From the IMG/VR virus record IMGVR_UViG_2695420643_000008, positions 1 to 5,987 of that record: a DNA stretch of 5,987 bases; one strand, 5' to 3'. A program made the position numbers and the translations under genes. Below are positions 2,715 to 4,640 of this stretch, one piece after another (the stretch's first letter is position 1; each line of letters opens with the position of its first letter). The DNA comes from a virus. Its lineage: Duplodnaviria > Heunggongvirae > Uroviricota > Caudoviricetes. A model generated the notes under the pieces. It made no database searches. It had not been told where the DNA came from and saw only the letters and a list, made by a program, of their open reading frames with translations.

Positions 2715-2790
2715 GGCCCTTTAGCTCAGTGGTGAGAGCGAGCGACTCATAATCGCCAGGTCGCTGGTTCAAATCCAGCAAGGGCCACCA
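2715..2790 (+). tRNA. ileZ: tRNA-Ile2 (anticodon CAU, lysidine type; tRNAscan would probably report Met-CAT), ileX/ileZ-like
   Basis: 76-nt cloverleaf folded by hand: acceptor GGCCCTT/AAGGGCC, D-arm GCTC/GAGC, anticodon loop CTCATAA (CAT at 2748-2750), T-arm GCTGG-TTCAAAT-CCAGC, encoded CCA. Sequence is close to E. coli ileX as I recall it. The gene name is taken from the Stx-phage ileZ-argN-argO cluster and is an inference. Confidence 0.9.
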
Positions 2791-2797
2791 TCACATA

Positions 2798-2874
2798 CCG
2801 CCATTAGCTCATCGGGATAGAGCGTCAGCCTTCGAAGCTGGCTGTGCGGGGTTCAAGTCCCCGATGGCGGTCCA
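2798..2874 (+). tRNA. argN: tRNA-Arg (anticodon UCG)
   Basis: 77-nt cloverleaf: acceptor CCGCCAT/ATGGCGG, D-arm GCTC/GAGC, anticodon stem TCAGC/GCTGG, loop CTTCGAA (TCG at 2832-2834), T-arm CGGGG-TTCAAGT-CCCCG, encoded CCA. Gene name by analogy to Stx-phage clusters; uncertain. Confidence 0.85.
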
Positions 2875-2887
2875 TTATCAGCATCAT

Positions 2888-2964
2888 GCGTTGTTAGCTC
2901 AGTCGGACAGAGCAATTGCCTTCTAAGCAATCGGTCACTGGTTCGAATCCAGTACAACGCGCCA
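2888..2964 (+). tRNA. argO: tRNA-Arg (anticodon UCU)
   Basis: 77-nt cloverleaf: acceptor GCGTTGT/ACAACGC, anticodon stem ATTGC/GCAAT, loop CTTCTAA (TCT at 2922-2924), T-loop TTCGAAT, encoded CCA. Gene name by analogy; uncertain. Confidence 0.9.
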
Positions 2965-2977
2965 TATTTATTTACTT

Positions 2978-3002
2978 GGCTCGCTTTTGCGGGCCTTTTT
3001 TT
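2978..3002 (+). terminator. Rho-independent terminator after the tRNA cluster
   Basis: Stem GGCTCGC (2978-2984) / GCGGGCC (2989-2995) with one G-U pair, TTTT loop, then TTTTTTT (2996-3002). Confidence 0.7.
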
Positions 3003-3018
3003 GTATCTGCGTTACACC
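2989..3018 (+). repeat. Copy 1 of an imperfect ~30-bp direct repeat (terminator 3' arm, T-tract and GTATCYGCG flank)
   Basis: GCGGGCCTTTTTTTGTATCTGCGTTACACC aligns with 3586-3614 at about 23 of 30 positions with one gap, by hand alignment. Confidence 0.45.
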
Positions 3019-3054
3019 ATTAACTAATAAATCGAGTGCTTATCAGGAGGCTAT

Positions 3055-3279
3055 GTGAAAAAACTGATGGTGACGATTGGTCCGTTCGAAACAGAAGTTA
3101 GTTTTCGTGTTGTTCAGGGGGAGAGTGTACTTGTTGAAGATGTATTTCATGGAAAATCAACAGGTCCTTATGTAAAAGAATATCTTATCGACGCCACGGA
3201 TGAAAATATTGAGGTGGTGTACGATTCCGTCAATCACCCTGATTTGATCATTAAGGCAAAATTGAAGCCACTTTATTGA
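3055..3279 (+). CDS. Hypothetical small acidic protein (74 aa)
   Basis: ORF track entry. GTG start preceded by AGGAGG (3045-3050) with a 4-nt spacer. No competing minus-strand ORF of 61 aa or more. Translation MKKLMVTIGPFETEVSFRVVQGESVLVEDVFHGK... has no family I recognise. Confidence 0.55.
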   Translation: MKKLMVTIGPFETEVSFRVVQGESVLVEDVFHGKSTGPYVKEYLIDATDENIEVVYDSVNHPDLIIKAKLKPLY

Positions 3280-3331
3280 TCTGACCGGGAGCAATCATAA
3301 AATATCTCTGGGTACCCACAAGGAGATAAAT

Positions 3332-3541
3332 ATGTTTGTTTCTGAAGTGTTAATGGAAGATAAGGACAACAAAGGATGGGTTAAAGGTTGGGCTGTGGTA
3401 AGAAGCTCGCCCTGGCATCTTGTTGGGGTTTTTGCGACAGAGGAAGACGCAGAAACGGAAGCAAGAAAGATGGGAGATAAGTACGAGGTTCACTATGGCT
3501 CGCATCGAACAGGAAGTGATGATTTTGTCTGGGGGGAGTAA
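3332..3541 (+). CDS. Hypothetical small acidic protein (69 aa), possibly DUF2188-like
   Basis: ATG preceded by AAGGAGA (about 8-nt spacer). The GWAVV...FATEEDAETEARKMG...YEVHYGSHRTGSDD pattern resembles the GWAV...EA..A...HG.DG signature I recall for DUF2188 small phage/bacterial proteins (low certainty). All three Arg codons are rare (AGA, AGA, CGA). Confidence 0.6.
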   Translation: MFVSEVLMEDKDNKGWVKGWAVVRSSPWHLVGVFATEEDAETEARKMGDKYEVHYGSHRTGSDDFVWGE

Positions 3542-3575
3542 CAGTCGTTTAACCCCAGAATAATCCCGTAACTGA

Positions 3576-3600
3576 GGTCGCTATTGGCGGCCTTTTTTGT
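3576..3600 (+). terminator. Rho-independent terminator after the two-gene cassette
   Basis: Stem GGTCGC (3576-3581) / GCGGCC (3587-3592) with one G-U pair, 5-nt loop, then TTTTTT (3593-3598) GT. Confidence 0.65.
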
Positions 3601-3614
3601 ATCCGCGCCACGCC
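3586..3614 (+). repeat. Copy 2 of the imperfect ~30-bp direct repeat
   Basis: GGCGGCCTTTTTTGTATCCGCGCCACGCC; shares GGCCTTTTTT(T)GTATC[T/C]GCG..AC.CC with 2989-3018. Confidence 0.45.
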
Positions 3615-3730
3615 CGGCGCATATCAACCACAGAGCCTTTCGGGGGTGAGCTTACGGAGTGGTCAGTGTGACTTTCTCTGTGGGCAGATCGCTCCCGGGC
3701 GTTGGCTCACCCACCCAAAGGAACGTCACG

Positions 3731-4162
3731 ATGTTTGGTATTTTTGGTAAAAAAGCCCGCCGAGCGGCAGTGGAAATTAAAAAGTTTGAGAAACGTGATC
3801 TGGCACAGGCGGTTATTAATGCTGCCTATCTGGTGGCCTATGCAGATGGTGAATGTGAGGCTTCAGAGAAAGCGAAGATCGAGCAGATCTTGCGTAACCA
3901 GCCTGCGTTGTCCGCGTTTACGTCAGAAATTAATGCGATTAGCGCAACCATTATCGGTCAGCTGGATACGAACTTTAAAATTGGTCGTCGAGCGGCATTG
4001 CGTGAAATTGAAGATGTGAAACACGATACGCGTGAAGCGGAAGATGTGCTGGATGTGGCGGTGGCCATTGCGGAGGCAGACGGCGAAATTGAGCCGGAAG
4101 AGCGCAAGGTGCTGGAAGAGATTGCCGGTGTTCTGGGTCTTCGTCTGGAGAATCACCAGTGA
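3731..4162 (+). CDS. TerB-family (tellurite-resistance TerB-like) protein, 143 aa
   Basis: Track ORF 3659..4162; I prefer ATG 3731 because AAGGA sits 8 nt upstream and the N-terminal extension from GTG 3659 looks non-protein-like. Two ADG-centred acidic helical motifs (YADGECEASEKAKIEQIL and EADGEIEPEERKVLEEIAGVLGL) are typical of TerB-like domains. Confidence 0.8.
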   Translation: MFGIFGKKARRAAVEIKKFEKRDLAQAVINAAYLVAYADGECEASEKAKIEQILRNQPALSAFTSEINAISATIIGQLDTNFKIGRRAALREIEDVKHDTREAEDVLDVAVAIAEADGEIEPEERKVLEEIAGVLGLRLENHQ

Positions 4163-4326
4163 CGGTAAAACTGCGCCTGGCTGTGGCTGCACTCCTGCTG
4201 TTTCTGGTGGTGATGGTGGATTTCACCAGCAGAATCATGTCGGTGCTGGCGGATGGGGTGCTGGTCTGCGGCATTGTGGTATTGCTGTGGCCGGTGATAA
4301 AAAGAAACAGCCTGCATAATGCTTGA
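4159..4326 (+). CDS. Small hydrophobic protein (55 aa, two predicted transmembrane helices), translationally coupled to the TerB-like gene
   Basis: GTG 4159 overlaps the TerB stop (GTGA). Translation MTVKLRLAVAALLLFLVVMVDFTSRIMSVLADGVLVCGIVVLLWPVIKRNSLHNA* shows two hydrophobic stretches and a basic C-terminus. Absent from the ORF track, which appears to list only ORFs of about 61 aa or more. Coding status rests on coupling and hydropathy only. Confidence 0.5.
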   Translation: MTVKLRLAVAALLLFLVVMVDFTSRIMSVLADGVLVCGIVVLLWPVIKRNSLHNA

Positions 4327-4525
4327 TTTTTTTATTTGCTGTTTATTAAAAATACTACTGCATGGTGAATCCCCCTGTGCGGAGGGGCGATCAGCAACCA
4401 GGTATATGGGATAATCGCGGATTCAGGTGCTGATACTGAATTCACCGGGAGGCACCCGGCACCATGCTTTGCCGCAAAAGTGTTGTTTCTGTTTTTCTCA
4501 AACTATCATCGTTATCCCTTTATTT

Positions 4526-4554
4526 CCGGCTGCGCATGGCGTGGCCTTTTTTTT
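4526..4554 (+). terminator. Rho-independent terminator upstream of nanS-p
   Basis: Stem GGCTGCGC (4528-4535) / GCGTGGCC (4539-4546) with two G-U wobbles, 3-nt loop, then TTTTTTTT (4547-4554). The short loop makes this less certain. Confidence 0.5.
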
Positions 4555-4640
4555 ACGACCAGCCACTGGCAGATGGCCATCCTGTAATTTGATTCCGGTT
4601 CCGGCTTTTTAACTCTGTTCCTGTACACGGGAGAAATTCG

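Follow-up and report, generated by a model that had tools for sequence, protein, structure and literature searches.

Two terminator-ended gene cassettes occupy the stxAB position in the late region of a probable Shiga toxin-negative lambdoid prophage of Escherichia coli

The DNA analyzed in this study (positions 1–5,987 of the IMG/VR record IMGVR_UViG_2695420643_000008, assigned to the Caudoviricetes; 5,987 nucleotides, hereafter the window) was mapped using a listing of its open reading frames (ORFs), scans for tRNA genes and Rfam families, and searches against Pfam and PHROG. All of the mapped features lie on the + strand, in the order: late antiterminator gene Q, promoter pR′ with its terminator tR′, an array of tRNA genes, a slot filled with cargo genes, and nanS-p. 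This DNA is, in all likelihood, the late-gene region of a mosaic, Shiga toxin (Stx)-negative lambdoid prophage of E. coli. Two pairs of genes are found in the slot: (i) ORF74 and ORF69, which encode small acidic proteins, and (ii) genes encoding a TerB-family protein and a DUF3927 membrane protein, homologs of TciA and TciB of phage P1, respectively. In the reading that we favor, and consider probable when taken as a whole, these pairs constitute two promoterless, terminator-ended cassettes that are present instead of stxAB and would be expressed late, through antitermination by Q.

Comparison of the window with phage records by megablast revealed matches chiefly with Stx1- and Stx2-converting phages. 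The segment 2286–3011 aligns with positions 5339–6063 of the Sp5 locus of E. coli O157:H7 Sakai (91.4% identity over 731 nt), i.e. from 15 nt past the Q stop codon to a point 45 nt short of the start of stx2A (6108). Similarity returns at 4342–4467, which matches Sp5 7435–7570 (73% identity), 87 nt beyond the stop codon of stx2B and within a small RNA (sRNA) of the STnc100 type, and then runs on into nanS-p. The comparison with Stx2a_1447 yielded identical breakpoints (3011/3012 and 4341/4342). These breaks in homology indicate that the segment 3012–4341 (1330 bp) replaces the 1371-bp stretch containing stx2AB. The stxAB position has been taken over by other cargo, and this exchange is resolved to the base.

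The first-pass annotation of this DNA had recognized in it the layout of Stx1- and Stx2-converting phages, with Q, a tR′-like terminator, a methylase remnant, Ile/Arg/Arg tRNA genes and nanS-p, but with no ORF resembling the A or B subunit of the toxin. The direct test of synteny described above confirmed the relationship with Stx phages, and each of the listed components was located at, or close to, the place where it had been reported. When the window was searched by tblastn with Stx1A, Stx1B, Stx2A and Stx2B, no match was obtained at E < 1; other genes are located between the tRNA array and nanS-p, where stxA and stxB are absent.

In the late regions of Sp5 and 933W, the order of elements is Q–pR′–StxS/tR′–methylase remnant–ileZ–argN–argO–stx2AB–sRNA–nanS-p. 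Gene order and strand are common to these regions and the window, in which a Q protein of family PF06530, pR′/StxS/tR′, ileZ–argN–argO and nanS-p were all identified on the late strand. The same terminator is located downstream of argO in Sp5 and the window, and their nanS-p genes are 71–82% identical. The window differs from Sp5 in the lack of stx2AB, in place of which it contains the two other cassettes.

The left border of the slot is formed by an intrinsic terminator following the tRNA genes (2978–3002; detected by scanning; −13.8 kcal/mol, z = −5.1), which is also kept behind the tRNAs in Stx2a_1447, OkiPb01684 and JLK-2012. Cassette 1 is composed of ORF74 (3055–3279; 74 amino acids [aa], isoelectric point [pI] 4.97), ORF69 (3332–3541; 69 aa, pI 4.90) and an intrinsic terminator identified by scanning and folding (3574–3600). 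The coordinates, pI values and Pfam matches agree with the two pairs originally noticed in the slot, an acidic pair of 74 and 69 aa and a TerB-like protein coupled to a 55-aa membrane protein. None of the four ORFs is disrupted, and each is preceded by a good ribosome-binding site. The products of ORF74 and ORF69 are predicted to be cytoplasmic, and no signal peptide or membrane segment was found in either of them. The GC content of ORF74/69 (39–46%) deviates from that of the flanks (53–57%), and terminators close both cassettes (3574–3600 and 4528–4556); possession of its own terminator and a deviating base composition are properties by which a moron is recognized.

Two copies of the post-tRNA terminator sequence (2974–3018 and 3571–3614) form direct repeats of approximately 80% identity that bracket ORF74/69, and the right-hand copy runs on into the post-tRNA sequence of elements without ORF74/69. 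Such a pattern is expected from recombination within the terminator.

Homologs of ORF69 with 60–93% identity were identified in Salmonella, Xenorhabdus and metagenomes (28 residues are invariant across genera), and others with 43–53% identity in Pseudomonas phages. Relatives of ORF74 are scarce, as a search of 1.84 billion proteins gave 11 representatives at E ≤ 1e-3; homologs with 34–44% identity sit directly upstream of ORF69 homologs and have retained both their length and this partner. Among 80 IMG/VR loci found with an ORF69 profile, 76 contain an ORF74 homolog directly upstream, and two of the other four end at a contig edge. The pair is always co-oriented with genes of the late strand (Q, holin, lysozyme, Rz and terminase), and it was found in three positions: (i) Q–pair–TerB–DUF3927–nanS-p–holin, (ii) Q–pair–holin, and (iii) holin–lysozyme–Rz–pair–terminase. 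The same two-gene unit followed by a terminator is present within the late operon of mEp237 as gp60–gp61 (PHROG 2571/4280; 39% identity for ORF74 and 65% for ORF69), but there the pair lies after Rz and before terminase, whereas in the window it precedes the lysis genes. A terminator is located downstream of the pair in E. coli, mEp237, Xenorhabdus and a metagenomic phage (L013), and no conserved promoter was detected ahead of it in these four. The AlphaFold2 models predict a β-β-α-β fold for ORF69 (predicted local distance difference test score [pLDDT] 92) and an all-β sandwich for ORF74 (pLDDT 90); fold and family searches with the two proteins returned no informative neighbors.

Genes of defense and anti-defense were observed near homologs of ORF74/69. 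SIR2_2, Band_7 and Acb2/Tad1-like proteins are encoded within the metagenomic phage (L013, 1489–7678), and a prophage of Xenorhabdus (L007, 8891–9133) carries an Acb2/Tad1-like gene past its lysis genes, with ORF74/69 close by. Given these neighbors, a part for ORF74/69 in the conflict with host defenses is a reasonable guess at most. In Pseudomonas phage YMC11/02/R656 (L015, 3686–4186) the upstream partner of the ORF69 homolog is a different protein (12% identity to ORF74). The homolog is antiparallel to the surrounding tail genes, and it would therefore need its own promoter in that phage.

The first gene of cassette 2 (3731–4162) encodes a 143-aa TerB-family protein with 41–52% identity to TciA of P1. 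Membership of this family follows from the Pfam match (TerB, PF05099; 61 bits, cutoff 24.4) and from homology to the solved TerB of Klebsiella (PDB 2JXU; E = 4e-8, residues 15–137), and PHROG 632 is covered from end to end (E = 1e-68). A GTG codon at 3659 was considered as the translation start and rejected, since the homologs and PHROG 632 begin with MFGIFGKK, which corresponds to the ATG at 3731. Directly downstream is the gene for the 55-aa DUF3927 membrane protein (4159–4326), a homolog of P1 TciB (PF13064, 62 bits, cutoff 25; PHROG 1470 “TciB-like”, E = 4e-30, end-to-end coverage), for which hydropathy analysis predicts two hydrophobic segments. This arrangement, with a DUF3927/TciB-type gene immediately after one of the TerB family, is that of the P1-type tciAB module. 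The start codon of the second gene overlaps the stop codon of the first (GTGA, 4159–4162), and on the basis of this overlap the DUF3927 protein appears to be translationally coupled to TerB. With respect to a tciC equivalent, no + strand ORF of at least 40 aa was found after 4326 until 4427, and the sRNA match described below begins at 4334. ORF and Pfam scans of the window also revealed no terC, terD, terE or terZ.

In P1, tciA–tciB–tciC are part of the C1-controlled ban operon and are located between tRNA-Asn/Thr and tRNA-Ile; the tci names rest on homology alone (PMC10695390, PMC9603915). Cassette 2 resembles this system in the succession of a TerB-family and a small membrane protein, in the phage tRNA genes that flank it and, if the expression proposed below is correct, in being repressed in the lysogen. 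It differs in the identity of only 41–52%, the lack of tciC, and the mode of control (Q antitermination versus the C1 repressor).

Relatives of the TerB protein were detected by tblastn in 131 phage records, and TerB–TciB adjacency was observed in three unrelated phages: P1, ChrisDB (a jumbo phage of Erwinia) and Pollock (an N4-like phage). The last of these belongs to the Schitoviridae, a virulent phage family, and jumbo phages such as ChrisDB are generally virulent. The occurrence of the pair in these two phages argues that it serves lytic growth and not the lysogen. The genes adjoin phage tRNA genes in unrelated phages (window, 2715–2964; L017, 1616–3276; L018, 586–2820; L005, 4756–4989). 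The arrays next to the pair in lambdoid prophages are Ile-Arg-Arg, Ile-Arg or Asn-Thr-Gly; in ChrisDB the pair is situated inside a tRNA cluster, and in P1 the Asn and Thr genes are located ahead of it and Ile behind.

A conserved 130-nt leader (3601–3730) extends from the cassette 1 terminator to the ATG of TerB. In 43 distinct variants of this leader the blocks GGTCAGTGTGAC (3661–3672) and GGCTCACC (3704–3711) are invariant, as are the Shine-Dalgarno (SD) sequence AAAGG (3717–3721) and GTCAC (3725–3729), which directly precedes the ATG. The run of G residues behind TTTC ranges from 4 to 12 among the copies. The leader, which gave no Rfam match, is possibly structured: its minimum free energy is −57 kcal/mol (z = −2.4), and pairing between CCACAGAG (3628–3635) and CTCTGTGG (3676–3683) is kept in divergent copies by an A-U to G-C change (one compensatory pair). 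A defined structure is not claimed, as the folds obtained with RNAalifold for 8 and for 24 sequences differ (1–5 compensatory pairs). Judging from its sequence, CCTTT (3636–3640) could mask the SD sequence of TerB.

The right border of the slot is an sRNA of the STnc100/PasD type (4334–4556), which comprises a match to Rfam RF02076 (4334–4503) and a terminator (4528–4556). The covariance score is 102.4 bits, against a gathering threshold of 47 (E = 3e-22; model positions 1–206); the alignment leaves out the 3′ terminator of the model, and the window seems to use its own terminator. The site upstream of the esterase gene matches that of PasD2, and the preprint on the Pas sRNAs names TerB as a conserved neighbor (bioRxiv 10.64898/2026.05.13.724894). 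A candidate sigma-70 promoter for the sRNA (TTGATT-N18-TAAAAA, 4310–4345), which spans the DUF3927 stop codon, was noticed by eye and was not reported by the scan. The Rfam search, with a limit as permissive as E ≤ 1, did not detect the anti-sRNAs AsxR and AgvB in the window. The sRNA with its terminator, the terminators at 2978–3002 and 3574–3600, and the TerB leader had all been overlooked in the first-pass annotation. The post-tRNA terminator and the sRNA, which anchor the slot on either side, are probably the recombination joints used for cassette swaps.

The same anchors enclose different occupants in other elements: stx2AB in Sp5 and Stx2a_1447, stx1AB in Stx1_14040, TerB/DUF3927 as the sole cassette in OkiPb01684 and JLK-2012 (annotated as tciA/tciB in the latter), TerB/DUF3927 together with two genes annotated as encoding a plasmid stabilization protein and a transcriptional regulator in PPyecE_EH1910, and ORF74/69 plus TerB/DUF3927 in the prophage of O26:H11 11368 and the window. 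In the non-Stx prophages and phages JLK-2012, PPyecE_EH1910, O26:H11 11368 and OkiPb01684, TerB/DUF3927 and the leader are 90–100% identical to those of the window and occupy the same place, and non-Stx prophages commonly show this arrangement. Unlike the window, most of these relatives lack ORF74/69. In addition, the tRNA array of JLK-2012 is Asn-Thr-Gly (Ile-Arg-Arg in the window), and PPyecE_EH1910, with its two other genes, has no annotated tRNAs.

Analysis of the distribution of the two pairs in 5426 complete E. coli genomes revealed TerB/DUF3927 (3615–4330) in 840 of them, with a median of 6 and a maximum of 10 copies per genome, and the ORF74/69 unit (3012–3577) in 110, nearly all at ≥99% identity. 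The first of these counts indicates that TciA/TciB is the usual occupant of the slot and stx the exception. The emphasis of the first-pass annotation, in which the toxin slot was occupied by different cargo, is therefore to be reversed: TerB/DUF3927 is usual and already annotated, and stx is the special case. In IMG/VR the TerB leader was found in 183 instances, which represent 127 distinct upstream sequences. TerB follows a tRNA array in 153 of the instances, and 31 contain ORF74/69 as an insertion located downstream of one of three different tRNA arrays.

Dozens of RefSeq genomes (O26, O145 and other enterohemorrhagic E. coli [EHEC]) contain the slot (2965–4640) at 100% identity, with its genes labeled as two hypothetical proteins, a “tellurite resistance TerB family protein” and a “DUF3927 family protein”. 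In three genomes (CFSAN027346, 08_3323 and 7_26_9A) an otherwise identical slot is interrupted by IS600, an insertion sequence of the IS3 family. The whole window was found in no complete E. coli genome (best match: 84–85% coverage, ~98% identity). The identity of its left part (1–2347) to the OkiPb01684 prophage is 98.6%, and that of its right part (2318–5987), which includes ORF74/69, to the prophage of O26:H11 11368 is 99.3%. The mosaic joint at 2318–2347, with the OkiPb01684 type to its left and the O26:H11 11368 type to its right, falls in a conserved hairpin just past the pR′ start. Its position inside that hairpin suggests that Q and the promoter travel together, and that a different lineage contributed the cargo along with tR′ and the tRNAs.

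The part of the window to the left of the slot begins with a gene for a DUF968 protein (114–1109; Pfam/PHROG), followed by Q (1112–1498; 128 aa; PF06530, 162 bits; PHROG 79). The Q protein is 57% identical to Q of Sp5 and belongs to the family shared with Q of 933W and Sp5. Between Q and pR′ is a WYL-like gene (1547/1574–2191; PHROG 8498; 214 aa when read from 1547) of low GC content (35–40%), in which the match to the Pfam WYL domain is weak (E = 0.01, below cutoff). The corresponding gap contains unrelated minus-strand genes in Stx1_14040 (L003, 316–2423) and Stx2a_1447 (L004, 3990–5553), and in view of these differing contents it looks like a second cargo hotspot.

The predicted pR′ transcript begins with a leader ending in tR′ (2293–2552), a homolog of the Stx-phage small RNA StxS with 91% identity to Sp5. 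Its start (+1) was placed at ~2293–2295 by homology to StxS-L of Sakai, a 258-nt transcript with an RNase E site (PMC7547250). The context of this site (GAGT/ATTGC) is kept near 2465 in the stx-negative prophage. The leader contains an early terminator-like hairpin (2319–2345; −12 kcal/mol) and the tR′ hairpin (2524–2552; −14.7 kcal/mol). Next is the 3′ remnant of a DNA methyltransferase gene (2562–2675), a pseudogene annotated by RefSeq in the 99.3%-identical O26:H11 11368 prophage and also present in Sp5. The tRNA array (2715–2964), annotated in Sakai and O26, was identified with ARAGORN and Rfam (56–72 bits) and consists of tRNA-Ile (anticodon CAT, 2715–2790), tRNA-Arg (TCG, 2798–2874) and tRNA-Arg (TCT, 2888–2964), homologs of ileZ, argN and argO, respectively. 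The first of these is named Met by ARAGORN, and its homolog is named tRNA-Ile (ileZ) in RefSeq and in the Sakai record. At the opposite end, nanS-p (4641–5987; Pfam DUF1737 and SASA), encoding a prophage sialate O-acetylesterase, runs off the window after its N-terminal 449 codons; it is 98–99% identical to yjhS/nanS-p of Stx1 phages and PPyecE.

Between pR′ and nanS-p there are five terminator-like hairpins (−12 to −15 kcal/mol), each with a U-tract. A scan for consensus promoters found no site ahead of either cassette, and its counts were not above those for shuffled sequence. From five terminators in series and the lack of detectable promoters we infer late expression under Q antitermination; the slot genes are all on the late strand, and the stx2 genes, which occupy the same position, are known to yield late-gene products (PMC8065619, PMC7547250). 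RNA polymerase starting at pR′ in the lysogen would halt at tR′ and at the later terminators, and the cargo would be silent or nearly so. Upon induction, Q-modified RNA polymerase would pass all five terminators and transcribe both cassettes, nanS-p and the lysis genes, as it does for stx2. TerB domains are reported to associate with membranes (preprint 10.1101/2022.05.11.491447), and at the inner membrane TciB is probably the anchor or the partner of the soluble protein that contains the TerB domain. TciA/TciB would probably serve the lytic cycle of the phage, by conditioning the membrane or envelope or by excluding competitors, and not tellurite resistance of the host. ORF74 and ORF69 probably form a joint cytoplasmic late accessory module, possibly directed against host defenses.

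Several observations weigh against late, Q-dependent expression and a lytic role. The WYL-like gene (650 bp) parts Q from pR′ in the window, which is not the case in Sp5, and the pR′ promoter hexamers are poorly conserved between the two. One promoter-like match (9 of 12 positions; 3276–3303) is located just upstream of ORF69, and sites weaker than the threshold of the promoter scan would escape it. STnc100/PasD-type sRNAs are abundant in uninduced cells (bioRxiv 10.64898/2026.05.13.724894), so that at least part of the region would be transcribed without Q. Finally, tciABC of P1 was found to be non-essential in a CRISPR interference screen (PMC10695390), and any role of these genes in the lytic cycle would therefore be accessory.

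Some of the same observations would suit classic morons, i.e. lysogenic-conversion genes transcribed from their own promoters that benefit the uninduced host through tellurite or colicin resistance or tolerance of envelope stress. Morons often have their own promoter (PMC8065619), as the antiparallel ORF69 homolog of R656 must in that phage; the weak match at 3276–3303 could supply one in the window, and the family of the adjoining sRNA is expressed in uninduced cells (bioRxiv 10.64898/2026.05.13.724894). The low GC content of ORF74/69 suits recent acquisition, and the names tciA and tciB derive from homology with the ter operon. However, a terminator stands ahead of each cassette and no promoter was detected there, ORF74/69 is embedded in, and co-oriented with, late genes in 76 of the 80 viral loci, and in an N4-like phage of the Schitoviridae and a jumbo phage, both of which have TerB/TciB, no lysogen that could benefit is expected. 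Tellurite resistance is not known to result from TerB on its own, in the absence of TerC, TerD and TerZ. On balance, this explanation of the cargo is unlikely.

An explanation that we regard as improbable to the same degree is that TerB/DUF3927, possibly together with ORF74/69, provides prophage defense or superinfection exclusion by surveying the membrane, in the manner of Bunzi and Shango. TerB domains are present in these validated defense systems and in DjlA (10.1101/2022.05.11.491447; 10.1101/2024.08.29.610257), a function in membrane surveillance has been proposed for them (10.1101/2022.05.11.491447), and the ter cluster of R478 has been tied to phage inhibition (PMC9603915). The retention of up to 10 copies in EHEC genomes would also be compatible with defense, as would SIR2_2, Band_7 and Acb2/Tad1 in the slot relative L013 and Acb2/Tad1 in L007. 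Against this, PADLOC gave no significant match for the four proteins (the best was TerB versus PDC-S48, E = 0.006 over 36 residues), and the partner genes of Bunzi/Shango-type systems (helicase, ATPase or other effector) are absent from the window. Defense genes are normally on in the lysogen, whereas the anatomy of the slot predicts late expression, and the pair is found also in the jumbo phage and in the N4-like phage from a virulent family.

The remaining alternative, that the interval is decaying prophage debris with chance or degenerating frames left after the loss of stx, is highly improbable and was rejected: a methylase remnant in the region, several pseudogenes nearby in the O26 prophage, disruption of the slot by IS600 in some genomes and the very few relatives of ORF74 (11 representatives) might suggest it, but it is contradicted by the conservation data, with four intact ORFs preceded by good ribosome-binding sites, 28 residues of ORF69 invariant across genera, ORF74 homologs (34–44% identity) that retain length and partner, models of both ORF74 and ORF69 with pLDDT ~90, TerB and DUF3927 matches far above the Pfam cutoffs, and cassette borders that match conserved anchors and not deletion scars.

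Parts of the preferred reading, of two late-expressed cassettes in the stxAB position, are already known. The gene layout, the sRNA and the TerB/DUF3927 pair can be found in annotated records and family libraries, and both nanS-p in non-Stx prophages and morons in the late regions of Stx phages have been described (PMC8065619, PMC10462455). In the literature, we found no statement that the tciAB and stx positions are equivalent at the level of the base, no characterization of ORF74 or ORF69, and nothing specific on a prophage TerB at the stx position; mention of DUF3927 was found in only two papers. The four slot genes are conserved, but an experimentally known function was found for none of them. 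The base-level equivalence of tciAB and stx, together with ORF74/69, constitutes small additions and not a new kind of system; the remaining value lies in the uncharacterized ORF74/69 pair and the conserved tciA leader. It is conceivable, though we put this forward only tentatively, that ORF74/69 may be an undescribed two-protein late-operon module, spread across the Enterobacterales, that acts on the host late in infection and counters defense or tunes lysis, and that TciA/TciB may be controlled by its conserved leader, which would be structured and mask the ribosome-binding site. If true, the toxin slot of Stx phages would contain two functional units new to science, the ORF74/69 module and leader-controlled TciA/TciB.

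The borders of the stx slot are fixed to the base by the argO terminator and the STnc100/PasD-type sRNA, and the slot accepts terminator-ended cassettes. TciA and TciB, which most often fill this highly expressed position, reach up to 10 copies in a single EHEC genome. These borders can be used for reading the gain and loss of toxin genes in lambdoid prophages, and for annotating the many near-identical late regions of EHEC.

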